Positions 10,795-56,225 are shown, counted from the first letter of the stretch. The stretch is 64,000 nucleotides of DNA from an uncultured Bacillota bacterium (GCA_963804645.1 CAWDRG010000008.1:1-64000); one strand, 5' to 3'. The notes: generated by a model not told the origin, from the sequence alone. A program made the numbers and translations.

Positions 10795-11032
10795 CGCTCA
10801 CAAACCGCCCTGGCGCGCTTCCGGAATACGTCTCGACCGGCGGCGCGCCGCCGGCCACGTCGATGTGCCGCCGATTCCATTCGGGGTCGTCCAACTCCAT
10901 GCCCGGGCGCGCCGCCGCGCGGCACGACCCAGACCGGTGAGAGCCGACCGTTCGACTCGGCACACTATCGCGCGCCCCCCGAAACAGCCCAAAAAGCAGA
11001 ACGAAGTCAGAGCGATGCGTCCCGTCTCCGGC

Positions 11033-11110
11033 TTCGGCAGCCCCGCTGACCCAAGCATCTGGCCCGGTGGCTTTGCGTCCCTGGGTTACCCCAAGTTTGC
11101 CCTTATCGTG
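11033..11110 (-). ncRNA. c-di-GMP-I (GEMM) riboswitch upstream of the giant adhesin
   Basis: Minus strand reads AAGGGCAAACTTGGGGTAACCCAGGGACGCAAAGCCACCGGGCC...GGTCAGCGGGGCTGCCGAA, matching the GGCAAAC / GACGCAAAGCC / AGCGGG..GCCGA consensus. The position equivalent to Vc2 G20 is G (c-di-GMP type rather than cGAMP type). Confidence 0.92.
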
Positions 11111-15933: not shown

Positions 15934-16911
15934 TCACCCCGATCGGAATGCGCCATCACCGCGTGCGGGCGCGACCGGGACCGGCACCTCCGGCCCGCAG
16001 TTCGGATGCCACGGCGCGTCCAGCGGCTCCGTCTCCATCTGCAGCGTGACGTGCCCGAGATGGAACCGGTCATGCAGCAGCGCGCACAGGTCGACGAGGA
16101 TCCGCTGGGCGGACGCCGGGTCGGCGATCAGGACGTGGCCGGTGACCGCCGGCACGCCGGAGGTCACCGACCACACGTGGAGGTCGTGAATGCCGAGCAC
16201 GCCGGGGACGCCGCGCATCGCCGCGTCTACCTCGGGGATCGACACGCCGCGCGGCGTGCCCTCCATCAAGACCTCGACGGCGTGCCCCACAATCGGCCAC
16301 GCCATCACGATCAGCACCCCGGCGATGCCGAGGCTGACCAGCGGATCCGCGGCGGTCCACCCGGTCGTCAGAATCACCAGGCTCGCGGCGATCGTCCCCA
16401 CGGCGGCCGCGGCGTCCGCCAGGACGTGCGCCAGCGCGGCACGGACGTTCAGGCTGGTGCCGCGCGCGGGCGCGAGCAGCGCCGAGCTCGCGAGGTTGCC
16501 CACGAGGCCGAGGACGGCGATGCCGAGCATCCCGGACGCGACGATCGGATGCGGCGTCGCGAGGCGGCGCACCGCCTCGTACACGATCGCCGCGGCGATC
16601 GCCCACAACGCCAGCCCATTCGTCACCGCGGCGAACATCTCCGCGCGCCGGTAGCCGTAGGACATCTGCGCGGTCGCGGGGCGCATCGCGATCCAGCCGC
16701 CGATCAGGCTCACGGCCAAGCTGCCGACGTCGACGAGGAGATGACCGGCGTCGGCGAGCAGCGCGAGGCTGCCGGTCAGCCATCCGCCCACGGCCTCAAT
16801 CGCCATCAGCAGCAGGGTCACCGCGAGCGTCCACAGGAGCGCGCGCGTCGACCCCGCGGTAACGGGCCCATGATGGTGCCCGTGATGTCCTCCGGTCCCG
16901 TGGTCGGTCAT
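15934..16911 (-). CDS. Cation diffusion facilitator (CzcD/ZitB-like)
   Basis: His-rich N-terminus, [19 protein letters not shown] and IHDLHVW motifs. Confidence 0.93.
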
Positions 16912-19277: not shown

Positions 19278-20194
19278 GGGACCGGCACGCCCGCGGTCAG
19301 AAGGTCCACGCACGCCGGCGCCACGTCCGTGATCGCGCGCAGCCGCGGCGCCAGGTCCCGGCGGCCGGCGCCGATGAGCAGTGCCGGCACGGGATTGAGC
19401 GTGTGCGCACGGGTGCCCCCGTCCTCCAGATTCCCGTGGTCGCTCGTGACGAGCACGAGCGTCTCGCGGAGATCGGCCGCGTCGAGAATTCCGCCGAGCA
19501 GCGCATCCAGACGCTCCACGACCTCGATCGGGTCGCCGGCGCGCCCGTGCCCCGCCAGGTCCGTTTGAAAGAACTCGAACAGCGTGAACGCGTGCGTCGA
19601 CGAGATCTCCGCGAGCCGCCGCCCCGCGTCCTTGGGCGTCACCTCCGGCACGTCGATGCCGTGCCGTCCGAGGCCGGTGTTGGTGAGGTCGTGGAAGACG
19701 GCCTGGCCGGCACGGAGGTCCTCCAGCCCGCGGATGCGCACGCCGGCCTGAAGCGCGTTGAGCGTGACCGCCGCGTGCCGGAGCCGGCGGGACGCCACCG
19801 CCTCGAAGTACGCGTCGGTGTACGCGTTGGCTAGCGCCGTCGACACCCCGGCCTCGCCCAATCGGACGAAGACGCCGTGCGAGGCGAGGAGCGTCCGGAG
19901 GGTCGGGGTCGGATAGGCCGTCACGTGCCGGCCGAGCAGCGCGGGCGCGTTCTCGCCGGTCAAGAGCGCGGTCTGGCCGGTCGCGCTCTGCGGCAGCCCG
20001 CTCACGCCGAGGCGCGCGTCGAGCGGGAGGAGCGTCGCCGCGTCGGTTCCCACCGGATCGCGGCCGGCCAGCGGCTGACCCAACAGCGCCCGGAGCGTGG
20101 GGGTGCGTCCCCGCACGAAAGGGTTCGTCGCGGGGTCCATGTCGCCCAACCCCACGCCGTCCACGAAGAGAAACAGCATCCGAACGGACCGCAC
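19274..20194 (-). CDS. Alkaline-phosphatase-superfamily metalloenzyme (phosphoglycerate/phosphopentomutase-like)
   Basis: FVDGVGLG, LPQSATGQT, TDLAGH, TSDHGN and HTLNPVP motifs. TAGAAT lies 6 nt before the GTG. Confidence 0.8.
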   Translation of the reverse strand: MRSVRMLFLFVDGVGLGDMDPATNPFVRGRTPTLRALLGQPLAGRDPVGTDAATLLPLDARLGVSGLPQSATGQTALLTGENAPALLGRHVTAYPTPTLRTLLASHGVFVRLGEAGVSTALANAYTDAYFEAVASRRLRHAAVTLNALQAGVRIRGLEDLRAGQAVFHDLTNTGLGRHGIDVPEVTPKDAGRRLAEISSTHAFTLFEFFQTDLAGHGRAGDPIEVVERLDALLGGILDAADLRETLVLVTSDHGNLEDGGTRAHTLNPVPALLIGAGRRDLAPRLRAITDVAPACVDLLTAGVPVP

Positions 20195-20274
20195 GATACC
20201 ATTCTACCTCGCGAGTGCGCCGGAGCGGCGCCGGGCGGCGCGGTTCCGTCAGGAGAGGCCGTCAAATGCCTGAC

Positions 20275-21123
20275 TCAACGGCTGCCGGTGCGCCCGCGCT
20301 GATGATCGGCGAGCGGCCACCCGACGAGCTGGCCGACCGCGCGAACCCACGAGGTTTGTTCGTGCCCGCGGGGTTCGTCTTGAAATCGGTAGTCGCGCTT
20401 CCTGATGAGTTCCCCGAGCTCACCGCGCAGTGCGGTCAATTTGGCATCCGCGATCTCGAGCAGCCGGCACGCCTGCGCTACCGTCGCGGCACCATCAAGC
20501 GTGATGAGCAGGTCGGGCAGGCAGAGAAACGACGATCGATTCATCGCGGCGACCATGTCGGCGTCATCGAGATGCCGCAGCAGGGTGGAGACGTAGCGGT
20601 CCTCGGCTTCCCGGGCGATCTGGCAGGCAGGACACGGGACCTGCGCCACGCGCCTCCGCCGCAGCAGTTCCACAAGCCACACACGTCGTGCCCCACCACG
20701 CGCCCCGCGGGTACCGTGCCGCTGTGGCCCTCCAACCCGCTGGACTTCCCGAATGGCCTCCTGGGCGAGCGCAACCTGATCCTGGTAAAGGATGGCCGCG
20801 GCGAGACTGTCGCCCAGACGTATCAACGCCCATGCATGCTCGCGGCAGAACCCTCTGGAAAGGTCGAGCGTGTGGCGTAATCCTGGGTCATTGACCTGCT
20901 CGTAGAGCGCGTCATCGAGATAGCGGTGGACCGCCTCGTTGCGAAGATAGCACAGCGGGCACTCCGGCTGCCCCAGGGCCGAGATCACGCGATGGTAGAG
21001 CATGTCGCGCTGGGCCAGCGCACGCGGCTGCGGTCCCAACCATCGTAAGCGCCGCACTCGTGCCATGCACACCACGTCCTCTCCCGGCGTCGCGTGAGCG
21101 CTCGTGCTGACCGAGTCGCCCAC
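20275..21123 (-). CDS. DUF6062-like protein with two CxxC...C Zn-binding-like motifs (start may be ATG 21066)
   Basis: ECPLC...YEQVNDP...GFCREH and CPAC...FLCLPD; C-terminal IRKRDYRF..EP.G.E..SW.RA. Confidence 0.7.
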   Translation of the reverse strand: MGDSVSTSAHATPGEDVVCMARVRRLRWLGPQPRALAQRDMLYHRVISALGQPECPLCYLRNEAVHRYLDDALYEQVNDPGLRHTLDLSRGFCREHAWALIRLGDSLAAAILYQDQVALAQEAIREVQRVGGPQRHGTRGARGGARRVWLVELLRRRRVAQVPCPACQIAREAEDRYVSTLLRHLDDADMVAAMNRSSFLCLPDLLITLDGAATVAQACRLLEIADAKLTALRGELGELIRKRDYRFQDEPRGHEQTSWVRAVGQLVGWPLADHQRGRTGSR

Positions 21124-21152
21124 CCCATCCGCAGGGCCGTCTCCCCATCCTT

Positions 21153-22628
21153 CTACGCCGGACCGCGGCGGGGCCGCGTGTCATCGGGCCCGGCCGATCG
21201 CGTCCCCCGCATCTGCTCCAGCGCCGCACGCGCTCCCTCGATCTCTTCACGCGAGAGTGCCGCCAGTCCGTATCGCGCGCGGCTGTACGTCGCGGTCAGC
21301 GTATCGACGGCGTCCGCCACACTCGGGTGCGCCGCGCGCACGACGCCGGCAAACTCCGCGGGGGTCTCGCTCGTGTGCCTGGAACTCCCACGCGCGGCGG
21401 CCAGGGTCAGGAATTCCGCGTAGCATCGGCGGATCGCACCGGCCGGTCCGGTGCCGTAGTCCGCCGGAGGGCTGACACGCCACCCTCGCCGGCGCCGTCG
21501 AAACCACGCGCGCCATGACGCGCGCACGTCGGCCCACGACCAGACGGACTCGCGGCTCTCGTCGGCGGAACGACGCCGCCCCGGCTGCCCAAACCGAAAT
21601 ACCGACCGGGCGAGCCACAGTGATCCGAGGATGAGCAGCAGTACCGCCACGCCCCACCGGAATGCCATGGCGGCCTCCGGCGGGAGTCCGGTCGTCTGAT
21701 GAGCCGCCGCCTGCTGGATCCAGGCCGGAGCCAGCAAGGGTGACAGCGACGGATGGATCCCGGGATGGACGAGCCGTTGGAAGATCCACAGGACCCCCGC
21801 GACGATCACGCCGAGGGGAATTGCGATGACGTAGAGGATGACGAGCAGCAGGACGTTCGCGGCTGATCCCATCGCGTCCCACAACGCTTTGACATCGAGC
21901 CGGAGCGCCACGCCTGCCAGGGTGGCGATCCCGAGCAGCACGATCACCGCACCGCCAAGCACCCCATACCAACCGCCAGACACCCGGGTGTGGCGCGCGG
22001 ATGCGCGAGTGAGCCGCTGCACGCTCTCGAGCCGTGCTAACGGAAGCGCAAGCAAGCCCGCGGCGAAAAACACGAGCAGGTAGGGAAAGGCGGCGGTCGC
22101 CACCGCCGCCAAGGCGGCGACCGAGCTGCCGCACGCCATCAGCACCGCGAAGATGCCGAGCGCGGCGAGCCCGAGATTGAACACCGCGTCCACGTCATAA
22201 TAATCCAGGGTCGTGCGCCCGACGACCAGCCCGCGCCGCCACACGAGCACGGCCAAGAGCCATGCGGGCGCCGCCGGCCGCGACCCGGTCAAGGCCGACG
22301 CCGCGGTGCGCCACAGCGGACCAGGAACTCCCCCCCGCACGTCGCCGTACTGCCAGGCCACGACGCCCGCCGCGACCAACACGCCAAGAGCGGCCAGCAC
22401 CGCCCCCGCCCGGCGTTCGCCGGTCCTCGCGAGGAACCGCCGCGTGAGGAGCTGTGAACCAGCGAGCAACCCGAGAATGACGACCGGGTGCAGGAGGCTC
22501 GTGCCCGGAGGAAGCCAGATCGTCCCGGCGAGCAGCGCATACGGGGTTATCCACGCAGCATCCATGATGGCCACAAGTGACGGCAGCATCCAGCCCGCGG
22601 ATGCCTCCGGCCGCTCCGCGGCATTCAT
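21153..22628 (-). CDS. Multi-TM membrane protein with C-terminal DUF4129 domain
   Basis: Many hydrophobic helices; C-terminal IRRCY...SETPAEF...LTATYSRARYG. Confidence 0.8.
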   Translation of the reverse strand: MNAAERPEASAGWMLPSLVAIMDAAWITPYALLAGTIWLPPGTSLLHPVVILGLLAGSQLLTRRFLARTGERRAGAVLAALGVLVAAGVVAWQYGDVRGGVPGPLWRTAASALTGSRPAAPAWLLAVLVWRRGLVVGRTTLDYYDVDAVFNLGLAALGIFAVLMACGSSVAALAAVATAAFPYLLVFFAAGLLALPLARLESVQRLTRASARHTRVSGGWYGVLGGAVIVLLGIATLAGVALRLDVKALWDAMGSAANVLLLVILYVIAIPLGVIVAGVLWIFQRLVHPGIHPSLSPLLAPAWIQQAAAHQTTGLPPEAAMAFRWGVAVLLLILGSLWLARSVFRFGQPGRRRSADESRESVWSWADVRASWRAWFRRRRRGWRVSPPADYGTGPAGAIRRCYAEFLTLAAARGSSRHTSETPAEFAGVVRAAHPSVADAVDTLTATYSRARYGLAALSREEIEGARAALEQMRGTRSAGPDDTRPRRGPA

Positions 22629-22687
22629 CGGGGCGTCGTGCCCGGTGATCGTCGGTCACGACGGCTCGGCATGATCACCTCCGGAGA

Positions 22688-23920
22688 TCACGCCAGCGCG
22701 ACGTGGGTGACGTCGCGCCATGCCTCCTCACCCCGCACGTGAAACACCGGCACGCGCCCTCCGTCGAATGCGGGCGCGGCGGTGCCCACCACGACCAGAC
22801 CCACCCCGCGTCCCTGCTGTCGGGTCGTCTCGAGCAGCGTGAGCACCTCCTGGTCGGGGAGCGCCGTGATGGCGATCGCCGTGGTGCCCCACGGGAGTTG
22901 CGGGACCTCCGCGGCCAGCATGTCCGCGAGCGCGATCGTGGCCACAGGAACGACCGTCGCCAGCGCTTCCAGCACCGCCTGCAACTGCCGGGGATGCTCG
23001 CTGGGCGGCAGGGCGATCGTGGCTGCGCCAGTCCCGCGAACTCGGGGCCCGTTGACGTAGAGGCCCACCGGAAGCTTCTGCTCAGCGGCCCACGCGGCGA
23101 CGGAGGCGGCCACGATGATCGCGAGTTCGACAATGAGCGGATCGTAGCCGGCCCACCACGCCAGTCCACGGAGCGTGTACATATCGAGGAACAGCGCCAC
23201 ACGCGCATGGGTCGTGGGCTCGACCATCTTGACTTGGAGGCTGCGGAGTCGCGCCGAGGCCTTCCAGTGGATGCGGCGCACGGAATCGCCGGCTTGATAC
23301 GCACGCACCCCCGCCTGATAGGTGGGATCGTCCCACAGCGTGTGGGGGGTCACCACGTCCCCAAACGGGCCGCGGGCAGCCAGCCCGAGGTGGTCAAGCG
23401 GGACGATCCGCGGATACACCACGAGCCGATCCACGTCGGACAGCTCCCGCTGCTGTGTCGACAATCCGAATAGATCGCCGCTCCGGAGCGTCGCCGGACC
23501 AAATTCGTACAGACCGCGGTGGGTGCACCTGAGACGATACCGGCGGCGAATGCGTTCGTACCAGCGGGGTGAGCACAGGTGCACGAGCGTGCGGCGGCGT
23601 GGCTTGTACGAGCTGGTCAGGTCCGCGTCGAGAAAGGTCAACGCGTCCGGCACGTCATCCTCGACCTCGAGCCACGGGAGCGGCAGAAGCTTGCGATTCA
23701 CCACCTCGAGGACGAGATCAATTTCTTCGTCAAAGAAGGCCCGCTGCTGGCTGAGCGTCCGTCGATAGGTGACCCCAGAGAAGCAGGACCGCTGCCAGAG
23801 CCAGGACACCAACACGATCAACAGCCCGATCACGGCGAACACAAACAGCAGCGCCTGGCGCAGGACGAGTCCAACGAGGCACAGGAGCACGAGCAGGCTG
23901 ACCCAGGCCTCGGAACTCAC
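22688..23920 (-). CDS. DUF58 domain protein (VWA-like MoxR partner) with N-terminal TM helices
   Basis: RGLYEFGP..LRSGDLFG, VRAYQAGDSVRRIHWKASAR. Confidence 0.9.
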   Translation of the reverse strand: MSSEAWVSLLVLLCLVGLVLRQALLFVFAVIGLLIVLVSWLWQRSCFSGVTYRRTLSQQRAFFDEEIDLVLEVVNRKLLPLPWLEVEDDVPDALTFLDADLTSSYKPRRRTLVHLCSPRWYERIRRRYRLRCTHRGLYEFGPATLRSGDLFGLSTQQRELSDVDRLVVYPRIVPLDHLGLAARGPFGDVVTPHTLWDDPTYQAGVRAYQAGDSVRRIHWKASARLRSLQVKMVEPTTHARVALFLDMYTLRGLAWWAGYDPLIVELAIIVAASVAAWAAEQKLPVGLYVNGPRVRGTGAATIALPPSEHPRQLQAVLEALATVVPVATIALADMLAAEVPQLPWGTTAIAITALPDQEVLTLLETTRQQGRGVGLVVVGTAAPAFDGGRVPVFHVRGEEAWRDVTHVALA

Positions 23921-24894
23921 GACCCCGCCCCGCCGGACGGCAGCGGGATTTCGGCCGGGACCGCCACGCCGGCAACAATCTCCGTCACGATCTCCTGAAG
24001 GGCGGTGCCGCGGAGCCGCGTCTGCCCGGTCGGCAGCAACCGGTGGCCCAGGACCGGCGCGGCGAGCGCCTTGACGTCGTCCGGCACCACGAAGGACCGG
24101 CTGCGAACGGCCGCAAGCGCTTGGGCGGTGCGCCGCAGCGCGAGCGTCGCCCGCGGGCTGGCGCCGAGCGCCAGGGCGGGATGCCTGCGCGTCGCTTGGA
24201 CGACGGCGACGATGTAATCGCGCACGACCGGCGCCACCGTCACCGAACGGATGGCTCGAGCGGCCGCCACCAGCGTGTCCAGATCCGAGCAGGGCTGGAG
24301 GTCGTCGAGGGGTGACGCGCGCTCAAATCGGTCGAGGATCGCGGCCTCGTCCGCAGCGTCGGGATACCCAAGCGACAGGCGCATCAGGAACCGGTCGAGC
24401 TGCGCCTCGGGCAGCGGAAACGTGCCGACGAGTTCGATCGGATTCTGGGTGGCCAGCACCAGAAACGGGGGAAGGAGCGCCCGCGTCTCTCCCTCGACCG
24501 TGACCTGCCGTTCCTCCATCGCTTCCAGGAGCGCCGACTGCGCGCGCGGGGTTGCCCGGTTGATCTCGTCCACCAACAGTACGTGGCTGAAGATCGGCCC
24601 GGGATAAAATTGGAACGCGTCTCCCTGGTCGCGGTAGACGGACACGCCCAAAATATCGGTCGGGAGCAGATCGGGTGTGCACTGAATTCGTCGGAACGTC
24701 CCGCCGATGCTGCGGGCGACCGCCTTCGCCAGCATCGTCTTCCCGATACCGGGCACGTCCTCCAGCAACACGTGCCCTTCGCTCAGCAACGCGACGAGTA
24801 GCAACTCAATCACGGCGTCCTTGCCGACGATCACGCGACTCACCTGCTGCCGGATCCGTTCCGCGATCGCCCCGACCTCTGCGGGCGTGTTCAC
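23917..24894 (-). CDS. MoxR-family AAA+ ATPase
   Basis: HVLLEDVPGIGKT, RIQCTPDLLPTD, DEINRATPRAQSALLE, FPLPEAQLDRF. SD-like GGGGGTG precedes the GTG. Confidence 0.95.
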   Translation of the reverse strand: MNTPAEVGAIAERIRQQVSRVIVGKDAVIELLLVALLSEGHVLLEDVPGIGKTMLAKAVARSIGGTFRRIQCTPDLLPTDILGVSVYRDQGDAFQFYPGPIFSHVLLVDEINRATPRAQSALLEAMEERQVTVEGETRALLPPFLVLATQNPIELVGTFPLPEAQLDRFLMRLSLGYPDAADEAAILDRFERASPLDDLQPCSDLDTLVAAARAIRSVTVAPVVRDYIVAVVQATRRHPALALGASPRATLALRRTAQALAAVRSRSFVVPDDVKALAAPVLGHRLLPTGQTRLRGTALQEIVTEIVAGVAVPAEIPLPSGGAGS

Positions 24895-24910
24895 GGTCGC
24901 CACCCCCAGG

Positions 24911-24950
24911 AACAAAAATGACCTCTACAGCTGCGTCCTGTAGAAGCCAT
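24911..24950 (-). terminator. Intrinsic terminator overlapping the 3' end of the leftward fluoride aptamer
   Basis: ATGGCTTCTACAG-gacgcag-CTGTAGAGGTCAT followed by TTTTGTT. Confidence 0.8.
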
Positions 24951-25008
24951 CGGCCACCGAGACCTTTCGGCTACCCGCTCGGAGGCGGTTTCGGCGAGCT
25001 TCATCGCC
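24940..25008 (-). ncRNA. Fluoride riboswitch (crcB motif) upstream of the moxR operon
   Basis: Minus strand reads GGCGATGAAGCTCGCCGAAACCGC...GGCCGATGGCTTCTAC. P1 is GGCGA/TCGCC; pseudoknot is GAAGC/GCTTC. Confidence 0.85.
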
Positions 25009-25047
25009 GTCACATTGCGGCTATTCAATTGTCTCCCTGTCTACCCG

Positions 25048-25076
25048 ATTATACGAACCGCCCCAGACGCCGTCAA
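25048..25076 (-). promoter_or_regulatory. sigma70-type promoter for the leftward riboswitch/moxR operon
   Basis: TTGACG-17 nt-TATAAT. Confidence 0.8.
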
Positions 25077-25150
25077 ATTCGGCGGCGCGCCGGCGCGGGG
25101 TGTGTCGACGGGAATGCGCACGGCCGCCGGCGAACGCGAGGTGCCGGGGC

Positions 25151-25179
25151 TTGTCGCTGCACCGCTCTCCGGGTATAAT
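25151..25179 (+). promoter_or_regulatory. sigma70-type promoter for the rightward riboswitch/Ehr operon
   Basis: TTGTCG-17 nt-TATAAT. Confidence 0.75.
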
Positions 25180-25214
25180 CGGCGTCGTACGACGATCGCC
25201 CCAGTTCGGCTCTT

Positions 25215-25264
25215 GGCGATGAGGCTCGCCATATAACCGCGTGATCCACGCTGATAGCCTCTGC
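25215..25264 (+). ncRNA. Fluoride riboswitch (crcB motif) upstream of the Ehr/hyf-like operon
   Basis: GGCGATGAGGCTCGCCATATAACCGCGTGATCCACGCTGATAGCCTCTGC. P1 is GGCGA/TCGCC; pseudoknot is GAGGCT/AGCCTC. Confidence 0.9.
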
Positions 25265-25297
25265 TGCCCGCTCCGGGTCCGCAGAGGCTTTTGTGTT
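25256..25297 (+). terminator. Intrinsic terminator overlapping the rightward fluoride aptamer
   Basis: AGCCTCTGC...GCAGAGGCT followed by TTTGTGTT. Confidence 0.8.
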
Positions 25298-25362
25298 GTC
25301 TGGACGACCGCGGGCCACGGCGGCAGTGGACTGGCCGTGCCCTGAGGCGTCGGAGGTGTGGA

Positions 25363-26307
25363 GTGGACGACCGGATTCTTTTCAATATCATCCAAGCCCT
25401 GACCGTGCTGCTGTTATCGCCGCTGGTCAAAGGTCTCCTCGACCGTCTGAAAGAGCGCGTCCAGTCGAGGCGGGGCCCGACGATCTGGCAGCCGTACCGA
25501 GATCTGTGGAAGCTCTTCTCGAAGGACGAGGTCGTTTCGGACCAGAGCTCGTGGATCTTCCGAGCCGCTCCCTATATCGTGTTCACGATGCCGCTGTTTG
25601 TCACACTGCTCATCCCCGCGCTCACGGATTACCCGCTCTTTTTCGCGTTCATGTCGGACATGCTCGGGGCGGGGTTTCTGCTCGCACTGGGCGGGTTCTT
25701 CGCCGCCCTGGCGGCGGTGGACACCACCAACCCCTATGGGCCCATGGGCGCGAGCCGCACCCGGATGGTCGGATTTCTCGCCGAGCCGGTGTTCATGATC
25801 GTGTTCTTCACCATCTCGTTCGTGGCCGGCTCGACGATTCCGTACATCGTCCAGCAGCAGTGGGTCACCCCGCCGTCCAACTTCTTCGAGCCAGGCCACG
25901 TGCTGCTGATGATCGCCTTTTTGATGCTGCTGCTCGCAGAGACGGGACGGATTCCGGTCGACAGCGCGACGGGACATTTCGAACTCGCGATGATCGACGA
26001 GTCAAAAGGGCTCGAGTATTCGGGCCGCGGGGCCGCACTCATGAAGTGGGGCGGGGCGATGAAGTTCATGGTGCTCCAACTCGTCTTTCTCAACGTGCTC
26101 GTGACCCCGTGGGGCTTGGCCACACGGGCGTCGGTCGGCGCCGTGCTGCTCGCGATCCCGGTCGTCTTCCTGAAGATCGTCATCCTGCTGCTGGTGTTGA
26201 CGGCGATCGAGTCGTCCCTGGCCAAGCTCCGCCTGTTCCGCATTACCGAGTTTCTGGGCGCGGCATTTGTCATCGCGACGATCGCGATGATCACGCGCGT
26301 CTTCTAG
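25363..26307 (+). CDS. HyfC/HycD-like (NuoH family) membrane subunit
   Basis: QSRRGPTIWQPYRDLWKL, GPMGASR, AETGRIPVD and LEYSG motifs. SD GGAGG precedes the GTG. Confidence 0.9.
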   Translation: MDDRILFNIIQALTVLLLSPLVKGLLDRLKERVQSRRGPTIWQPYRDLWKLFSKDEVVSDQSSWIFRAAPYIVFTMPLFVTLLIPALTDYPLFFAFMSDMLGAGFLLALGGFFAALAAVDTTNPYGPMGASRTRMVGFLAEPVFMIVFFTISFVAGSTIPYIVQQQWVTPPSNFFEPGHVLLMIAFLMLLLAETGRIPVDSATGHFELAMIDESKGLEYSGRGAALMKWGGAMKFMVLQLVFLNVLVTPWGLATRASVGAVLLAIPVVFLKIVILLLVLTAIESSLAKLRLFRITEFLGAAFVIATIAMITRVF

Positions 26308-26322
26308 CCAAGGGGGCGACGT

Positions 26323-27000
26323 ATGGTGCAGTCGACCTGGATGCCCGCGCTCAATGATCTGGCGGGAGCGCTGTTTCTCCTCACCGCGGTCGGGCTCGTC
26401 GTGGTGCGGCAGGTGCAGGCGTGCCTCGCGGTATTCGTCCTCGAATCGGTCCTGCTCGGCGCCTCGGCGCTGATCTTGGGCACGGCGCTCGGGACACCGG
26501 ATCTCCTCGCCGTCGGCCTGATCACGATTGGGGTCAAAGCCATCCTGCTCCCGTGGCTGCTGCGCCGTACGGTCAGCGGTGAGATTTACACGCACCGCGA
26601 GCTCTCACAGCTGATCAACGTGCCCGCCTCCCTGCTGATCGCCCTCGGGCTCACGGTCGCGGCGTATTTGATCGCCGGGCCGCTCCTGTCACATCAGACA
26701 GAATTCGTCCGCGTGAATCTCCCGATCGGACTCGCGGGCCTGCTCCTGGGCGCGTTCACCTTGGTCACCCGCCGTGAAGCCGTCCCGCAGCTGATAGGGC
26801 TCCTGGCCATGGAGAACGGGGCATTCCTCGCGGGCGTGTCGATCGCCCCCGGCCTTCCGCTGATCGCCGAACTAGCGGCCTCGTTCGATGTCTTGGTGAT
26901 AGTCCTGGTCATGGGCATCCTCACCCAGGCGATCCACGAGCACGTCGGCACCACCGACATCGTGCACCTGGTGGAGCGCGGTGACGAGGGCCACGCATGA
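26323..27000 (+). CDS. HyfE-like membrane subunit
   Basis: Hydrophobic protein with KAILLPWLL and QLIGLLAMENG. Confidence 0.85.
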   Translation: MVQSTWMPALNDLAGALFLLTAVGLVVVRQVQACLAVFVLESVLLGASALILGTALGTPDLLAVGLITIGVKAILLPWLLRRTVSGEIYTHRELSQLINVPASLLIALGLTVAAYLIAGPLLSHQTEFVRVNLPIGLAGLLLGAFTLVTRREAVPQLIGLLAMENGAFLAGVSIAPGLPLIAELAASFDVLVIVLVMGILTQAIHEHVGTTDIVHLVERGDEGHA

Positions 27001-28442
27001 TGCTGCTCCTGATCCCCATCCTCCCGCTGCTGGCGGCGCTGTGCGCCCTGCTCCGGCCGCGGGGGCGCATCGCCGCGGCGGGGACGATCGCCGCCGCCGT
27101 GCTCGCGGCGGCGGGCGCCGCGCGCACGGCGCTGCTCGGCGCTGCCGGCACGACAATCGTGGCCGTGCCGGGGTGGATCGCCTGCGACGGTCTGAGCGCG
27201 CTCGTGCTGCTGCTCGTCGCCGCGGTCAACGTGAGCGCCGCGATCTTCTCGTGGGGCTACGTCCCCGCGAGACTCGCGCCGGCGGATCCGGCGGCGGAGC
27301 GGCGCTACTACATCAACTACAATCTGTTCGTCTCGTCGCTGCTCCTCGTGCCGCTGGTCCTCGAGCCCGCGCTGGTCTGGATCATGATCGAGCTGACCAC
27401 GCTCCTCTCCGTGTTCCTCGTCGGCTTTGATCGCACGCGGGGCGCGCTCGAGGCCGCCTGGAAGTACGTCGTCCTCACCCTCATGGGGGCGGCCATCGCC
27501 CTGCTGGGCGTGCTCCTCATGTATTGGGCGCTGTGGACCGCGGGGGGACGGGCGTTCACGTGGGATGGCCTCGTGGCCGCGGCCCCGCACATGCCGGCCG
27601 GCGTCATTCAGATGGCGTTTCTGCTGGTGCTGGTCGGCTTCGGGGCCAAGATCGGACTCGTGCCCCTCCACACATGGATCCCCGCGGCGTACAGTTACGC
27701 GCCCTCTCCCATCTGCGCGCTGCTGTCCGGCGCGGAGGCCACGGCGGTCTTGTATGTCGTGTTGCGCCTGGTCCCGGTGGCGGTCTCGGTGCCGGCCGTG
27801 CATGTCAGCGGCGCGCTCCTGGCCTTCGGCCTGCTGTCGGTGGCGGTCGCGGTGTTCCTGATCCTGCAGACGAGCGACTATAAGCGCCTGTTCGCCTACT
27901 CCACGATCGAGCACATGGGCATCATCCTGGTCGCCGCGGGCCTCGGGGGCGCGCTCGCGTCCTATGGGGCCGTCGCCCAGCTCCTCACGCACTCGGTCAC
28001 CAAGGCGTTCTGCTTCCTTGCCGTCGGGTCAGCGGTGATCGTCACGAACACCAGGGACACGGGCTCGATCCGGGGGCTCGTACGGACGTCTCCGGTCGCC
28101 GGGATCGCGCTGCTCCTGGGAGGCCTGGCCATCGCGGGAGCGCCTCCGTTCGCGGTCTTCCTCAGCGAGTTCGCGATTTTCCGCGCCGGGGTGTCCGAGG
28201 GGCACGCGGTCGTCGTCGCGCTCCTCGCCGCGTGTGTGATCGTCGGGTTTGTGGCCATTATGGTGCACGTGAACCGCATGGTGTTTGGATCTCCGACCGG
28301 CGCATCCGGGCGGCCACGCCTTCCCGCCGCCTGCGTCGTGGCGCTGGCCGCCGCCGTGGTCCCGGTGGTGGCGCTTGGCCTGTACGTGCCGCGTCCGGTG
28401 TTCGAGCTCCTGTCCGAAGCCGCGCGCTGGATCGGGAGGTGA
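26997..28442 (+). CDS. HyfF-like proton-translocating (Mrp/NuoN-like) subunit
   Basis: IELTTL, ALEAAWKY, GFGAKIGLVPLHTWIP, KRLFAYSTIEHMG. Confidence 0.9.
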   Translation: MMLLLIPILPLLAALCALLRPRGRIAAAGTIAAAVLAAAGAARTALLGAAGTTIVAVPGWIACDGLSALVLLLVAAVNVSAAIFSWGYVPARLAPADPAAERRYYINYNLFVSSLLLVPLVLEPALVWIMIELTTLLSVFLVGFDRTRGALEAAWKYVVLTLMGAAIALLGVLLMYWALWTAGGRAFTWDGLVAAAPHMPAGVIQMAFLLVLVGFGAKIGLVPLHTWIPAAYSYAPSPICALLSGAEATAVLYVVLRLVPVAVSVPAVHVSGALLAFGLLSVAVAVFLILQTSDYKRLFAYSTIEHMGIILVAAGLGGALASYGAVAQLLTHSVTKAFCFLAVGSAVIVTNTRDTGSIRGLVRTSPVAGIALLLGGLAIAGAPPFAVFLSEFAIFRAGVSEGHAVVVALLAACVIVGFVAIMVHVNRMVFGSPTGASGRPRLPAACVVALAAAVVPVVALGLYVPRPVFELLSEAARWIGR

Positions 28443-28449
28443 GAGAGAC

Positions 28450-30048
28450 GTGAGTCCTGCGCAGCCAGCCGAGATGAGGATCGCGGACGTGCGGTCCGCG
28501 GCCGCGTCGCGATGGATCGACGTGCGGGTCCGCGAGAACATGGCCCAGGACGTCGCGACGATCGAGTGCTCCCCCCAACGCCTGCGTCAGGTGTGCGCGT
28601 GGCTGTTCGCCGGTCTGGGCTGCGCGTTTGGAGGGCTGGTCGTCGAAGACACGCCCGCGGCCTGGGTGCTGCGGTATCTGTTCTACGGCCCCACGCCCGG
28701 GCAGATCCACGTGGTCACGGAGTGCGCCAAACCGTCGGAGACGGTACCCAGTATCAGCGTCGAGGTCCACGCCGCAGACTGGCATGAGCGAGAGGCGGAG
28801 GATCTCTTCGGCCTGGTGTTCGAGGGGCATCCGCGCCTGGGCGACTTCGTCCTCCACAACGACACGTGGCCGGAGCAGGTCGCCCCGATGCGCCGGGCCT
28901 TTGACCCGACCGCACGCCCGCCCTATCCGGCTCCTGACGACGCCTGGGCCCCGCTGCGACTCGTGGCCGAGCCCGGAGCCTTTCTCATGCCCGTCGGCCC
29001 GGTGTACTCCGGCATCACGGAAAGCGCTTTGTTTCTGCTCGAAACCGTCGGCGAGGACGTGATCCGCATCTTTCCCCGTCTCTTCTACAACTACCGAGCC
29101 ATTGAGAAGAGCGCCGAGGGCCGGACGGTGGACGATGCACTGCTGCTCGCGGAACGCTTTTCGGCCACCTCCGCGTTCGCGCACTCGCTCGCGTTCTGCC
29201 GCGCGGTCGAGACGATCTCGGAGGTTGTCGTCCCGCTCAGGGCGCAGGCGCTTCGCGTCCTGTTGGCGGAGCTCGAGCGGCTCCGTCACCATGCCGCCGC
29301 GATCGAAGCGATCTGCGACTCCACGGCCCTGGCCGTGGCGACCAGCCAGGCGGCGCTGCTGGAGGAAGACCTCCTGCGGCTGTCCGGGGCGCTCACCGGG
29401 CACCGGTATTTGTTCGGGCTGAACGTCCCGGGCGGTCTCGCGCGGGACGTGGCGACCGCGGCATGCCGCGAGGCCGCCGCGGCGGCGGCGGATGTCCTGC
29501 GGCGCCTCCGGGACCTCCGTCAGATGGTGCGATTCTCCACCAGCTTTCTCGACCGGATCGAAGGCGTGGGCGCGATCCCCGAAGTCGCGGCGCGGACCCA
29601 CGGGCTCGTGGGGCCCGTCGCCCGGGCCTCGGGCATCGTCCGGGATCTGCGCCGCGCGCAGCCGTACGCTGGGTACGAGCGACTCGCGTTCGAGGTGCCG
29701 CAGGAAACCGCCGGAGACGGATACGCCCGGCTCTTAGTGTTGTTCGCCGAAGCCGAACAATCCGCGGCCCTGATGCGCCAGAGTGCCGACCAACTCTCGG
29801 ACGGACCGGTCCGTGTGCCGGTGCGGACCGCATCGGGAGCGGCGTTTGGGTGGGCGGAGGCGCCGCGCGGAGCCACGTTCCATTGGGTCCGAATCGGCGA
29901 GGACGGACGGCTCGAACGCTATCGGGCCGTGACGCCCTCATTCATCAACTGGCACGGCCTGCATCTTGCGGCTGAGAACTTCGCGTTCCAAGACTTCCCG
30001 ATCATCCTGGCCACCCTCGGCCTGTCGGCCGCGGAGTGCGACCGCTAG
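28450..30048 (+). CDS. HyfG/HycE-like large subunit (NuoC+NuoD fusion) lacking NiFe-binding cysteines (Ehr type)
   Basis: ADWHEREAEDLFGLVFEGHP, GPVYSGITES and EAPRG motifs. The L1 site reads ERFSATSAFAH and the L2 site LGLSAAECDR, with no CxxC. Confidence 0.9.
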   Translation: MSPAQPAEMRIADVRSAAASRWIDVRVRENMAQDVATIECSPQRLRQVCAWLFAGLGCAFGGLVVEDTPAAWVLRYLFYGPTPGQIHVVTECAKPSETVPSISVEVHAADWHEREAEDLFGLVFEGHPRLGDFVLHNDTWPEQVAPMRRAFDPTARPPYPAPDDAWAPLRLVAEPGAFLMPVGPVYSGITESALFLLETVGEDVIRIFPRLFYNYRAIEKSAEGRTVDDALLLAERFSATSAFAHSLAFCRAVETISEVVVPLRAQALRVLLAELERLRHHAAAIEAICDSTALAVATSQAALLEEDLLRLSGALTGHRYLFGLNVPGGLARDVATAACREAAAAAADVLRRLRDLRQMVRFSTSFLDRIEGVGAIPEVAARTHGLVGPVARASGIVRDLRRAQPYAGYERLAFEVPQETAGDGYARLLVLFAEAEQSAALMRQSADQLSDGPVRVPVRTASGAAFGWAEAPRGATFHWVRIGEDGRLERYRAVTPSFINWHGLHLAAENFAFQDFPIILATLGLSAAECDR

Positions 30049-30057
30049 GAGGCGCGC

Positions 30058-30822
30058 ATGACCACCTGGGTGTGGAAGGGCCTGTCGACGCCGGTCCGCA
30101 CCACGCGATATCCGGCCGCGCCGGACGACACGCCGGGGACGTCGCCCGGCCGGCCGGCCGGCGGCGCGGTCAGCCCGACCACCGGCGCGGACTTGATCGC
30201 CCGCTGCCCGACCGGAGCCCTCACCGCGTCGGACGGGCACATCGTCGTGGATCCGGCACGCTGCGTGCACTGCTACCGCTGCGTCCGAGGCGTCGCCCAC
30301 CCAATCGGGTGGGAGTCGGGTTATGAATGGGCCCGGGCGACGTCCGGGGATGGACAGCCGAGCGCCCCGCTCGGTCGAGCGTTTCATCGATCCGCGCATA
30401 TCCTGGTCGTTGACGCCGGGGACTGCGGAGCGTGCCTGAGTGAGGTCAAACAGCTGAACAATCCCTACTACAACATGCACCGGCTCGGATTCTTCATCAC
30501 GCCGACGCCCCGGAACGCGGACATCCTGCTCGTGGTCGGGCCTGGGACCGCGAACATGCGGTGGGCGCTGCGGAAAGCGTACGACGCGATGCCGACGCCC
30601 AAGCGGGTGATCGCGGTCGGCACGTGCGCATCGAGCGGCGGCGTCTTCACCCCGAGTTTCGCGTCGGGGACGGGCATCCACGAGGTCCTGCCGGTGGACG
30701 TCATCGTGCCGGGCGCTCCTCCCCCGCCGCTCGCGATTCTGCACGGCTTGCTCGTGGCCACGGGACGGGCCGCGCCGGCCGAGCGGCCCACCGCGGCGGC
30801 CAACGGGACGGTCGCCCGATGA
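30058..30822 (+). CDS. HyfI/HycG-like (NuoB) small subunit with a fused N-terminal 4Fe-4S ferredoxin segment
   Basis: CPTGAL...CVHCYRC; GDCGACLSE, PRNADILLV, GTCA, VPGAPP. Confidence 0.88.
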   Translation: MTTWVWKGLSTPVRTTRYPAAPDDTPGTSPGRPAGGAVSPTTGADLIARCPTGALTASDGHIVVDPARCVHCYRCVRGVAHPIGWESGYEWARATSGDGQPSAPLGRAFHRSAHILVVDAGDCGACLSEVKQLNNPYYNMHRLGFFITPTPRNADILLVVGPGTANMRWALRKAYDAMPTPKRVIAVGTCASSGGVFTPSFASGTGIHEVLPVDVIVPGAPPPPLAILHGLLVATGRAAPAERPTAAANGTVAR

Positions 30823-32963
30823 CGCACGCCGAACCCTGGCTCCTCTGCTGCCTCGGCCTCTGCGCGGCCGGCATCGTCGCCAGCGCGGTGACCCCAGAAC
30901 GGCTCGTGCCCACGGTCATCGCGTGGATCGGTTCGGCGGCCTCGGTGCTCCTCATGGCGCTCGGCGGGTCGGTCGTCGTGGCCGGACACCCGATGACCCT
31001 CTCGCTGTGGTCGATCACTCCCACCGACGCGCTCGTCCTCAGTCTCGACCGCTTGGGAGGGGTGTTTGCGGCCGCCGCCGGCCTCGTCTGCCTGCCCGTG
31101 TCCATCTTCTCGGCAGGATACCTTGGGCGGTATCTGGGTCGCTACAGCCTGAGATCGTTCGGCATCCTGTACCACGCGCTGCTCGCCGCCATCGTCCTCG
31201 TGCTGGTCGCCGGCGACGTCCTGTCGTTCCTGCTGGCATGGGAAGCGATGGCGATCTCCAGTTACCTGCTGGTGAACTACGAGCACGAAGACCGGGAGCA
31301 CACGCGTGCCGGGTACCTGATGCTGGTCATGGGGGAAGCCGGCACCGTCGTGGCGATGCTGGGCCTGCTCGTCCTCGCGAACGGTGCCGGCGGCCTGTCG
31401 TTCGGCGCGCTCCGGAGCGCCGGCGCCGCGCTTGGAGGCGCCGGACGCTGGGCGGTGTTTCTGCTCACCTTCTTCGGGTTCGGCGTGAAGGCCGGCCTGC
31501 TGCCGAGCAGTTCATGGCTGCCCCGGGCGCATCCGGCCGCGCCGGCTAACGTGTCGGCGATCCTGTCGGGCGTCATCCTGAACCTCGGGCTCTACGGCAT
31601 CGTCCGCGTCAATCTCGACCTGCTGCCGGTCGATCGGGTCGGTCCCGGGGTGATCGTGTTGATCATCGGCAGCCTCTCGGCGCTCGTCGGCATTCTCTAC
31701 GCCACGACGCAGAACGATCTCAAGACCATGCTCGCGCACAGCTCCATCGAAAACATCGGCATCGTGGCCACCGGGCTCGGCGCGGGCCTGATCTTCGGCG
31801 CGTCGGGATATCCGGTGCTGGCGGGGATGGCCTACATCACCGCGTTCTACCACATGGTCAATCACGCGGCCTACAAAGGGCTCTTGTTCCTGGGCGCGGG
31901 CGCGGTCGACGTCGCGGCCGGAGCCCGGGACATGGACCGGCTCGGCGGGCTGATCCGCGGAATGCCGTGGACCGCGTTGTGCTTTCTCATCGGGGCGCTG
32001 TCGATCGCCGCGATGCCGCCGTTCAACGGGTTTGTCAGCGAGTGGCTGACGCTGCAGATGCTGCTGCGCAGCGTGGAACTCCAGGCGACGGTGGTGAAGA
32101 TCGTCTTCGCGCTGTGCGGGGCGGCGCTCGCCCTAACCTCCGCCCTGGCCGTCACGTGCTTCGTCAAGACGTTCGCGATGAGCTTCCTCGGCATGGCCCG
32201 GTCCGCCGGCGCCGAATCGGCGCGCGAGACCACCCCGGCCGCCCTCGCGGCGATGGGCCTGCTCGCGGTCGCGTGCCTGACGCTCGGGGTGATTCCCACC
32301 GCCGTCATTCCGGCCCTGGACCGCGTCGTCACCCCACTCGTCCACGCGAGCGCCGTGGACGCGCTGGTCCCGCCGTTCTTCCACCCCACCGTGCCCGGGC
32401 ACGCGCTGCCGCCCGCGTTCGTCGCGGACTTCCACGACCTCGGGGCCCAAGTCGGGCGACACGTCATCCCGGGGCCGGGCCTCGTCGTGATGCACCGCGG
32501 CGGGTTGAGCAACCCCGTGGTCTTCGCGATGTCGACGAGCTATCTGCTCCCCGTGCTGGCGCTCCTCCTGACCCTCCTCTACGCCGTCGTCCGGCTGGCG
32601 ACACGGGCCCGCGCGGTCGTCCGCCGCACGCGCTGGGACGGCGGACTGCCGCGGCTGGACGCGAGCATGACGTACACGGCGACCGGATTTTCCAACCCGG
32701 TGCGGGTCGTGTTCAACGCCGTGTTCCATCCGTCCGTCGATGACGACACGACGGAGGTGGTCGCGGAACACTTTCGCACCGCCGTCCGTCGGTCCCGGAG
32801 CGAAGTCTATCTGGCCGACCGGCTGCTCACGGAGCCCCTCGCCCGCTGGTCGCGCCGGTACGCGCGCGCCCTCGCGGGCATGCATCACGGCCGTCTCAAC
32901 GCGTACGCGGGGTACGTGCTGCTGACGCTCCTTGCCTGTCTGATCGCCGGCCGGTACCTGTGA
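30819..32963 (+). CDS. HyfB/HycC-like (NuoL/MrpA family) membrane subunit
   Basis: FLLAWEAM, GFGVKAG..WLPRAHPAAP, LAHSSIENIG, PPFNGFVSEW. ATGA overlap with the upstream gene. Confidence 0.9.
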   Translation: MTHAEPWLLCCLGLCAAGIVASAVTPERLVPTVIAWIGSAASVLLMALGGSVVVAGHPMTLSLWSITPTDALVLSLDRLGGVFAAAAGLVCLPVSIFSAGYLGRYLGRYSLRSFGILYHALLAAIVLVLVAGDVLSFLLAWEAMAISSYLLVNYEHEDREHTRAGYLMLVMGEAGTVVAMLGLLVLANGAGGLSFGALRSAGAALGGAGRWAVFLLTFFGFGVKAGLLPSSSWLPRAHPAAPANVSAILSGVILNLGLYGIVRVNLDLLPVDRVGPGVIVLIIGSLSALVGILYATTQNDLKTMLAHSSIENIGIVATGLGAGLIFGASGYPVLAGMAYITAFYHMVNHAAYKGLLFLGAGAVDVAAGARDMDRLGGLIRGMPWTALCFLIGALSIAAMPPFNGFVSEWLTLQMLLRSVELQATVVKIVFALCGAALALTSALAVTCFVKTFAMSFLGMARSAGAESARETTPAALAAMGLLAVACLTLGVIPTAVIPALDRVVTPLVHASAVDALVPPFFHPTVPGHALPPAFVADFHDLGAQVGRHVIPGPGLVVMHRGGLSNPVVFAMSTSYLLPVLALLLTLLYAVVRLATRARAVVRRTRWDGGLPRLDASMTYTATGFSNPVRVVFNAVFHPSVDDDTTEVVAEHFRTAVRRSRSEVYLADRLLTEPLARWSRRYARALAGMHHGRLNAYAGYVLLTLLACLIAGRYL

Positions 32964-43021: not shown

Positions 43022-43143
43022 CCCAAATCAACGAGGGGATGGCAACGCCATCCCCTCCACGTCGATCGACCTCTCGGTGGACCTTACCGGCAACCGCGTC
43101 CGCACGCCGGCGCCGTAAGGTGAGAAGCGGATGGCTTCTACTT
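43022..43143 (-). ncRNA. L20 leader (ribosomal protein leader) with terminator
   Basis: AAGTAGAAGCCATCCGCTTCTCACCTTAC...GTAAGGT; terminator GAGGGGATGGC/GCCATCCCCTC. Promoter TTGATT-17-TACAAT at 43150-43178. Confidence 0.85.
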
Positions 43144-43178
43144 GTGGCGATTGTAGCACAGGTGCACCCCGGAATCAA

Positions 43179-50239: not shown

Positions 50240-50757
50240 TCAGCGCGCCGGACCGAAGACGTCGATCCGGACGATGGGCCACCCATCCGGACCGCCCGAC
50301 CTCGGCCCCAGGTAGACTGCGATGCCGCTCCGGTCGTAGACCCACGCCGTCTACGCCGGCGCGGTCACCGACCGTGTCGGCGGACCCATCGTAAGCCGCA
50401 CGGCTCGACCGATCGCGCCGACCCGCAGCGCATTCACCAGTGAATAGTCCGCGCTCCCGACGATGCCCACCGCGTACCCGCGGCCGTCCGGCCCGACCAA
50501 ACCGCGTCACGCCGTTGCGCCAGAGGGACTGGACGGATTCCGGCGGCGCGGCGATGACGGTCGGCGCGGCCACGCGCCGATGCGAGACCGGCGGCCTGAA
50601 CATCGTCGCCGCCGCCTGATCGACCGTCATGCCGAGCGACACGCCCCCGATCGCATACCCGGGCGTGATCCGAAAGTCCGTGACTTCCTGCGCGCCCGCC
50701 GGGACCGCCGGCAGGACCGCGAGCAGCAGGAGCGCCGCCGCCCGTCCACCGCGTCAC
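50240..50757 (-). pseudogene. Disrupted secreted hypothetical protein (two frameshifts and an in-frame TAG)
   Basis: Reconstructs as MTRWT/AAALLLLAVLPAVPAGAQEVTDFRITPGYAIGGVSLGM...NGVT/GLVGPDG...TAPA*TAWVYDRSGIAVYLG...DVFGPAR. Confidence 0.5.
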
Positions 50758-56217: not shown

Positions 56218-56225
56218 CCGCCGGC

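Follow-up and report, generated by a model that had tools for sequence, protein, structure and literature searches.

This article concerns a stretch of 64,000 nucleotides (nt) from an uncultured Bacillota bacterium (GCA_963804645.1 CAWDRG010000008.1:1-64000), called here the window, and in particular an operon on its minus strand in which a fluoride riboswitch is followed by genes for a MoxR-type AAA+ ATPase, a DUF58 protein, a multi-transmembrane DUF4129 protein, and a DUF6062 protein. As judged from the sequence, there is strong support for a transcriptional fluoride ON-switch in front of moxR, made up of the aptamer and a terminator that competes with it, with fluoride binding and induction as its predictions. 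I propose that this switch controls an AAA+ remodelling machine tethered to the membrane, a combination that, with the action of the proteins conjectural, I put at slightly better than an even chance.

Triads of MoxR, DUF58, and DUF4129 genes occur across bacteria, and the fluoride regulon beyond its two exporters is poorly understood. A fluoride cue gives three widespread DUF families a phenotype that can be tested, fluoride tolerance, and it bears on how fluoride poisons cells (sequestration of Mg2+, inhibition of ATPases) and on engineering microbes to withstand the fluoride released from organofluorine compounds. The initial annotation of the window treated this link as possibly undescribed, and literature searches, which did not cover Baker et al. 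2012 with its gene table and supplement, found no paper connecting a fluoride riboswitch to MoxR/DUF58/DUF4129 or to DUF6062.

A fluoride switch in front of moxR

The leader and the operon comprise the following features:

25048..25076, minus strand: sigma-70-type promoter of the MoxR leader, TTGACG-17-TATAAT, 11 of 12 consensus matches in a consensus scan
24934-25017, minus strand: fluoride riboswitch aptamer (crcB motif, RF01734), Rfam 38.2 bits, cut-off 34, E 5.3e-07
24908..24951, minus strand: intrinsic terminator (hairpin 24951..24917) from a terminator scan, with a 14-pair stem, a 7-nt loop, and a U tract
23917-24915, minus strand: MoxR AAA+ ATPase, MRP/AAA_3 type; AAA_3 203.9 bits (cut-off 27, 9.6e-61), AAA_lid_2 76.1 bits (cut-off 22.7, 1.8e-21)
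22688-23920, minus strand: DUF58 protein (PF01882), 42.7 bits, cut-off 23.4, a partial profile match at residues 205-328
21153-22628, minus strand: multi-transmembrane DUF4129 protein (PF13559) of 491 amino acids (aa), 53.7 bits, cut-off 24.8, residues 402-471 only
20275-21123, minus strand: DUF6062 protein (PF19538), 66.2 bits, cut-off 27, a 282-aa open reading frame (ORF)

The Rfam aptamer and the Pfam names for all four ORFs agree with the initial annotation, which had placed four co-oriented genes just behind the terminator of a riboswitch.

The aptamer has a 27-nt insert within the loop of P3 and a GAAGC/GCUUC pseudoknot, and it scores 60.2 bits by R1, an aptamer model made for this study and trained in part on MoxR-type leaders. 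Across 40 aptamers, those of the window and its relatives, pairing in P1, P3, and the pseudoknot holds in 95% of the cells, a figure that drops to 43-55% in a control where the helices are slid by 1-3 columns. In the same alignment 9 of 13 pairs are altered on both sides, which none of 500 shuffles matches, and the pseudoknot pair 22:86 is GC in 22 aptamers and AU in 18. The long P3 insert and a CCGAU variant are common to MoxR-type leaders.

The consensus scan that found the promoter gave 4 promoter-like sites in 7 kb, as against 0.4 expected. The 5' arm of the terminator is the 3' strand of the aptamer's pseudoknot, and the hairpin is present in the minimum free energy fold. By the mechanism of the riboswitch class, this overlap would make the terminator the expression platform of an ON switch, in which bound fluoride blocks the hairpin. 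The maximal MoxR ORF opens within the terminator's U tract; translation likely starts at a GTG about 15-20 nt further on, near 24894-24903.

There is a weak hint that the leader is expressed, in the form of a metatranscriptome contig of 254 nt that bridges the terminator. It spans 24777-25030 with 0 differences, taking in the aptamer, the terminator, and 140 nt of moxR, and its end at 25030, some 18 nt downstream of the -10 hexamer, is near the predicted start of transcription. No matching contig was present in two of the three RNA runs examined. At the level of DNA, at least half of the sampled words from 20200-25400 are found in each of five public runs, all labelled peat metagenome and coming from two coded studies; the same look-up listed no RNA run for the stretch.

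The assembly that contains the window (G000; 22 contigs, 96.8% complete) has only two fluoride aptamers by Rfam, by R1, and by an exhaustive scan for the core pattern (2 matches, 0 in control): the one just described and another at 25206-25270 on the plus strand, in front of a divergent operon. The thought that one aptamer might be shared by both operons was rejected because each has an aptamer with a separate promoter and terminator. An R1 match of 16.5 bits at 43062-43152 of the window was dismissed as noise. Six-frame searches of the assembly found 0 genes for CrcB (PF02537) or CLC (PF00654). Taking G000 together with 40 relatives, which their depositors label 'Bacillota bacterium' metagenome-assembled genomes, CrcB is found in 3 of 41, CLC in 9, and fluoride aptamers in 23. 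An organism with fluoride switches and no recognisable exporter is therefore a natural place to seek other protection against fluoride. The assembly contains three AAA_3 MoxR genes, and only the copy in the window's operon has a riboswitch and a DUF4129 partner; no aptamer accompanies the other two MoxR-DUF58 systems. The riboswitch-linked paralogue may thus be the one dedicated to the fluoride condition.

The classical cargo of RF01734, as part of PMC11139923 summarises it from Baker et al. 2012, consists of crcB/Fluc, eriC-F/CLC-F, Na+/H+ antiporters, pyrophosphatase, enolase, and 'formate hydrogen lyase'. The window shares with these units the aptamer, in which P1, P3, and the pseudoknot covary, and the terminator-type ON platform, and its divergent operon, which encodes an Ehr/hydrogenase-4-like complex, fits the 'formate hydrogen lyase' class. 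What differs is the cargo at issue here, MoxR-DUF58-DUF4129 with DUF6062, which is absent from those portions of the published cargo lists that were consulted, and the finding of no Fluc/CLC gene.

Inheritance and recruitment of the switch

Four related genomes (G001, G003, G006, and G011) likewise have MoxR as the leading gene after an aptamer. A scan of metagenomes with an alignment of the DUF4129 protein yielded 20 loci, 8 of them reaching the start of MoxR: L056, L057, L058, L059 (a duplicate of L058), L062, L063, L064, and L066, hence 7 distinct. In all eight an aptamer lies no more than about 30 nt from the maximal MoxR ORF. Among the loci examined, crcB was not seen beside these genes. 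Rfam places 5 of the 7 distinct loci above its cut-off (35.5-45.9 bits) and 2 just under (33.9 and 32.7 bits; they match G003 and G001). The MoxR of the window is 72-80% identical to that of 7 other riboswitch-linked operons. The same alignment used on genome contigs gave 5 loci, four of them relatives already collected and the fifth a Ktedonobacteraceae fragment, in whose genome no aptamer was found.

Two further loci (L069:1102-1764 and L070:1009-1671) have an aptamer of 65-67 bits by R1, followed by MoxR residues 7-55 joined to DUF4129 residues 355-488. This remnant seems to descend from the operon by a deletion that spared the switch.

Outside the lineage, the proteins are found in Chloroflexota, where 37 of 301 sampled genomes have DUF4129-type proteins (three of the 37 are unpublished and were left unused). 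Of 11 Chloroflexota MoxR-DUF58-DUF4129 operons examined with their upstream sequence, 3 have aptamer-like leaders, and all three are probable fluoride aptamers. In G102 a promoter, a variant aptamer, and a clean terminator are followed by DUF6062-MoxR-DUF58-DUF4129, and in G252 a variant aptamer is followed by MoxR. G068 has an aptamer-like leader, MoxR-DUF58-DUF4129, a second aptamer-like element, and DUF6062; on its opposite strand three aptamers (42.7, 38.6, and 26.1 bits) precede the NuoH-like gene of an Ehr complex, an arrangement that mirrors the full layout of the window.

In a tree of MoxR plus DUF58 from 25 operons, the window's lineage contributes 8 linked operons, which group as a single clade (support of 100 by the Shimodaira-Hasegawa-like approximate likelihood ratio test), sister (95) to 5 unlinked operons, and the three Chloroflexota cases lie apart among unlinked operons. 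The distribution of the switch over the tree calls for at least 4 gains or losses. The tree thus speaks for one inheritance in the window's lineage and several separate recruitments. It is hard to see as an accident a linkage of aptamer to MoxR-DUF58-DUF4129 that is clade-wide in one lineage and separately acquired elsewhere, and I therefore take it to be selected. That the riboswitch serves as a fluoride cue for the DUF proteins, as the initial annotation had it, finds support in comparison: in 8 of 8 related loci, in 3 of 11 Chloroflexota operons, and for DUF6062 in 9 of 11 relatives (see below).

Candidate functions and rival explanations

What might such an operon do? Among the known systems closest to it are triads of MoxR (AAA_3), DUF58, and a transglutaminase/DUF4129 protein, among which I count the yeaC-yeaD-yebA genes of Bacillus subtilis and the TgpA locus of Pseudomonas aeruginosa. 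The order of MoxR, DUF58, and polytopic DUF4129 protein is the same, and the genes overlap or are closely spaced. The operon in the window differs in being gated by a fluoride aptamer, in a DUF58 protein without the canonical DxSxS, and in a DUF4129 protein without a transglutaminase core. The last point, made already in the initial annotation along with the many membrane spans, stands: Pfam finds no transglutaminase family in the 491-aa protein at E<=0.01, only PF13559 at residues 402-471.

The MoxR protein contains GIGKT and VDEINR, which I take to be Walker A and B. The DUF58 gene starts in overlap with the stop of MoxR, and its product is hydrophobic at the N-terminal end, enough by eye for about two membrane helices, and continues as a VWA-like body. 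DxSxS is presumably the canonical metal-site motif (MIDAS, the metal ion-dependent adhesion site) of VWA-type proteins; the MIDAS position here reads D-M-Y-T-L, and 13 related DUF58 proteins read D/N-x-x-T-x there, with or without a riboswitch. The DUF4129 protein, encoded by a gene with a single copy in the assembly, has the conserved loops RESVWSWAD and WRRGxVxGRTxLxYYD and an arginine-rich linker ahead of its C-terminal domain. Its predicted structure consists of many helices with a predicted local distance difference test (pLDDT) of 69 overall, 85-95 over roughly residues 11-90 and 121-200 and lower in between; a Foldseek search of the PDB with this pLDDT 69 model gave no match at E<=0.001. 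NCBIfam has no name for the DUF58, DUF4129, or DUF6062 proteins. The hydrophobic N-terminus of the DUF58 protein and the polytopic DUF4129 protein with its arginine-rich linker would put the soluble parts of both in the cytoplasm, where MoxR is. In G001 the DUF4129 gene (L042:6743-8305) is broken by one in-frame TAG, and may be a pseudogene or an assembly error.

In the RavA-ViaA, NorQ-NorD, and CbbQ-CbbO systems, a MoxR-family ATPase and its VWA partner have respiratory complexes or metalloenzymes as their targets. RavA and the AAA_5 proteins CbbQ/NorQ belong to MoxR subfamilies other than that of the window's MoxR. These systems and the operon have in common an AAA+ ATPase with a VWA-like adaptor, and the operon adjoins a membrane complex that resembles complex I; the differences are the MoxR subfamily and a client that is only a candidate, adjacent in 3 linked operons. 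Closer in MoxR type are the Bat (Bacteroides aerotolerance) operons, described in part of PMC11834572 as MoxR-DUF58-BatA-VWA-TPR and tied there to stress tolerance. As in the window, an MRP-type MoxR comes first and has a DUF58 partner, and the same portion of that source credits MRP-type MoxR proteins with DUF58/VWA partners with conferring resistance to stress. The window operon differs in having no BatA, VWA, or TPR genes downstream of DUF58, where the genes are DUF4129, DUF6062, one for a metalloenzyme resembling phosphoglycerate mutase (PGM), and MutS2.

The complex that adjoins the operon is encoded by the divergent unit, whose features are:

25151..25179, plus strand: promoter of the second aptamer, TTGTCG-17-TATAAT
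25206-25270, plus strand: second fluoride aptamer, Rfam 36.5 bits, cut-off 34
25256-25299, plus strand: terminator of the second aptamer, a hairpin followed by UUUUGUGUUG
25291..32963, plus strand: Ehr/hydrogenase-4-like membrane complex, with NuoH-, HyfE-, HyfF-, NuoCD-, NuoB-, and HyfB-like genes

Here too the 5' arm of the terminator is the 3' pseudoknot strand of the aptamer. The homologue of NuoCD and hydrogenase large subunits (28285-30048, plus strand) has no N-terminal CxxC and one C-terminal Cys left. The missing motifs are, I take it, those that bind NiFe, and because the large subunit is without them the complex is of the Ehr type, without a NiFe site.

I propose the following course of events. 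The promoter at 25076..25048 would drive the leader, and the aptamer, when it binds fluoride, would hold its 3' strand in the pseudoknot. The terminator at 24951..24917 would then be blocked and RNA polymerase would proceed into moxR and the genes for the DUF58, DUF4129, and DUF6062 proteins. MoxR as a hexameric AAA+ ATPase, the DUF58 protein as a VWA-like adaptor anchored in the membrane, and the DUF4129 protein as a polytopic scaffold may together form a remodelling machine at the membrane that faces the cytoplasm. Under fluoride stress the machine might assemble, repair, or re-activate membrane or Mg2+-dependent complexes disabled by fluoride, and the co-regulated Ehr complex is the first candidate for a client. 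Maturation of that complex by the MoxR machine is suggested by adjacency, in 3 operons.

A number of observations weigh against this proposal. The RNA evidence comes from one contig in one sample, with strand and possible carry-over of DNA uncertain. The eight linked operons of the window's lineage represent one inherited event, not eight, and the tree comes from a short search with an outgroup on a long branch. The three Chloroflexota MoxR leaders are all under the Rfam cut-off and rest on R1: Rfam gives 25.9 bits for G068, does not report G102 at E<=0.01, and leaves G252 short of the gathering score. The module is not specific to fluoride in itself. Orthologous operons without the riboswitch were to count against the idea as first put forward, and there are such operons: all 5 sister operons, from the same taxonomic order as the window, with an identical arrangement of genes and with MoxR 58-61%, DUF58 44-49%, and DUF4129 about 30% identical to those of the window, have no aptamer even with filters off (best match 10 bits), and there is none before 8 of the 11 Chloroflexota operons. 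Within the lineage the switch is kept, in 8 of 8 related loci. The existence of orthologous operons without it implies a general module, recruited to the fluoride regulon by some lineages. As to the candidate client, the Ehr genes adjoin the operon in only 3 cases (the window, G001, and G068), lie about 5 kb off in L066, and are not found near the operon in G003, G006, or G011. Nor is DUF6062 a constant companion. In L053, the closest relative distinct in sequence (DUF4129 76% and DUF58 93% identical), DUF4129 is followed by the PGM-like gene and MutS2, without DUF6062; the near-identical L051 does contain it. Of the best 30 DUF6062 loci in Chloroflexota, just 4 have an aptamer within 1.5 kb, and for one more an NhaP gene comes between the upstream aptamer and the locus.

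A bolder form of the proposal is that the organism tolerates fluoride independently of Fluc/CLC-F: MoxR-DUF58-DUF4129, with DUF6062 and Ehr, would be a membrane-anchored AAA+ repair system for re-assembling or re-metallating Mg2+-dependent membrane complexes that fluoride has poisoned, recruited at least 4 times, and together with Ehr it would constitute the whole switch-controlled response in this genome. I offer it tentatively, as more doubtful than credible.

An alternative view is that the machine is itself sensitive to fluoride, through its Mg2+-dependent hexamer and ATPase site, and that the switch simply makes more of it, as is done elsewhere for enolase or pyrophosphatase, while its job remains what it is in lineages without the switch. 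There is precedent in ClpX. Parts of PMC12700350 report that fluoride sequesters Mg2+, breaks up the hexamer of this AAA+ protein, and inhibits its ATPase, that overexpression of ClpX or ClpC rescues fluoride-stressed cells, and that ATPases are among the enzymes made in extra copies under fluoride. The module's presence without a switch in the 5 sister and 8 Chloroflexota operons also suits such dosage compensation. It is less easily squared with a copy under the switch that is the only DUF4129-type module in the assembly, and therefore gated rather than topped up, or with two other MoxR-DUF58 systems that the genome leaves without an aptamer. Moreover, an ON switch of the terminator type implies low expression when fluoride is absent, as one would expect of a conditional function more than of housekeeping. 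On balance I consider dosage compensation unlikely.

Another alternative is that the four genes form one system in which the MoxR machine has DUF6062 as its client or its adaptor; DUF6062 might, for instance, be a protein whose metal site the machine loads or resets. The DUF6062 protein has two CxxC motifs, as the initial annotation noted, CPLC at 55-58 and CPAC at 164-167 in the numbering of the ORF. Across 34 DUF6062 sequences C55, C58, C93, H96, C164, C167, and C201 are invariant and make up two CxxC...C groups, the first with a His; the protein probably binds metal, of the zinc type. Its start is probably M20 or M41 of the ORF (21066 or 21003), going by shorter gene calls elsewhere, which would leave a gap of 30-150 nt behind DUF4129; a consensus scan found no terminator in that gap. 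The AlphaFold model is all-helical (pLDDT 89.6, predicted template modelling score 0.82). Foldseek found no match to it in the PDB at E<=0.001, and the best hit in a wide VIA-align structure search, Z 5.7 over 83 residues, is within helical noise. Complex prediction for DUF58(45-410) and DUF4129(345-491) with DUF6062 as partner, at a score of 0.00, speaks neither for nor against an association.

In favor of a single system, two phyla have DUF6062 within or next to MoxR-DUF58-DUF4129 operons, and in three gene orders, those of the window, of G102 (DUF6062 first), and of G068 (on both sides). The family is large, with 5,249 cluster representatives at E<=0.001, and a protein atlas places DUF6062-like domains within dynamin-family GTPases (TM, the template modelling score, by query 0.74). 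These fusions, unconfirmed by sequence search, would make DUF6062 a module that travels with membrane NTPases; sequence search found no longer fused forms, and the best 150 of the 5,249 representatives are single or tandem DUF6062 only. Tandem double proteins, about 450-530 aa long, occur often; numerous members of those best 150 are matched in two stretches, and one such protein is at L039:2510-4093 (G006).

On the other side, most relatives have DUF6062 in a cassette free of MoxR. The usual order begins with an aptamer and two small coiled-coil proteins; DUF6062 comes next, followed by MFS, NhaP, Usp, or H+-PPase. Of the 11 non-self DUF6062 homologues in relatives (E<=1e-10), 9 have an aptamer at most about 1.1 kb upstream and on the same strand, a count from which pseudogene-like matches in G014 and a weak match in G035 had been dropped beforehand. 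In Chloroflexota DUF6062 is present in 88 of 301 sampled genomes (two of the 88 are unpublished and were left unused), where members without a nearby aptamer adjoin unrelated genes, and it stands beside a DUF4129-type protein in only 2 of the 34 published genomes that have the latter. Finally, the four genes are not one fixed unit, because the operon of L053 does without DUF6062. A single four-gene system is accordingly quite unlikely. DUF6062 is probably a member of the fluoride regulon in its own right, usually with its own aptamer and here placed into the MoxR operon.

The two small coiled-coil families between aptamers and DUF6062 (about 140-180 aa, no Pfam match, spread over several families of the taxonomic order) are both missing from the window, and are fused in one genome. 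Examples are:

L033:2338-2811; L035:6170-6652 and 5679-6212; L038:6749-7297 and 6325-6840; L034:2136-2591 and 2585-3013: small coiled-coil proteins
L044:1409-1930; L037:5972-6844 (fusion); L025:584-988: further small coiled-coil proteins

It is very improbable, last, that the polytopic DUF4129 protein, alone or with DUF58, transports fluoride or another ion in place of Fluc/CLC-F, with MoxR as an assembly or gating factor: the genome's want of a CrcB or CLC gene (in a 96.8%-complete assembly, and with CrcB in 3 of 41 and CLC in 9 of 41 genomes) and the fact that, of its membrane proteins, only DUF58, the DUF4129 protein, and the Ehr complex were found behind aptamers speak for it, and the missing fold match is compatible with a transporter, but Pfam sees only the C-terminal DUF4129 domain, with no match to PF02537 or PF00654, the conserved residues are mostly in loops and in that domain rather than in membrane helices, G001, G003, and G011 have a CLC gene in addition to the switch-linked operon, and ions might just as well be handled by the Ehr complex, which has Mrp-type antiporter subunits. 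Nothing from Pfam, the model, or the fold search supports the transport of anions by this protein, which the initial annotation had raised.

Other genes near the operon and in the window

The gene after DUF6062 and a second MoxR operon are located as follows:

19274-20194, minus strand: metalloenzyme-superfamily protein, 306 aa, with a C-terminal part resembling PGM/phosphopentomutase
50757-57239, minus strand: Bat-type MoxR operon, with AAA_3 MoxR, DUF58/VWA_2, BatA-N/VWA_2, and a 916-aa VWA protein

The 306-aa protein resembles cofactor-independent phosphoglycerate mutase or phosphopentomutase, far under the equivalog cut-offs. MutS2, a CDF transporter, and tyrosyl-tRNA synthetase were considered as members of the operon and rejected as housekeeping genes; in L053 the PGM-like gene and MutS2 come directly behind DUF4129. 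In G006 a PGM-like gene and a MutS-type gene form a pair divergent from an aptamer. No fluoride aptamer was found near the Bat-type operon by Rfam or the core-pattern scan.

The cargo behind aptamers in relatives includes NhaP, MutS-like genes, H+-PPase, MFS, Usp, and NUDIX. Frequent in first place behind aptamers of this taxonomic order, namely behind 4 of the 38 that have a locus, are genes for MutS_V-only proteins, about 480-535 aa long. They are distinct from the window's full-length MutS2 (16908-19313), which has an Smr domain. Those in relatives are:

L041:7021-8628; L042:3279-4886 and 1756-3282; L025:1614-3065; L007:2-1453: MutS_V-only proteins

The window has one more riboswitch, of the c-di-GMP-I-GGC class (11032-11110, minus strand, 66.9 bits, cut-off 59), which binds by its name cyclic di-GMP (c-di-GMP) and lies about 240 nt upstream of an ORF of 2493 aa (3316-10794, minus strand). 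With nine PATR repeats and an Shr-like domain, the ORF looks like a giant surface protein under the control of c-di-GMP.

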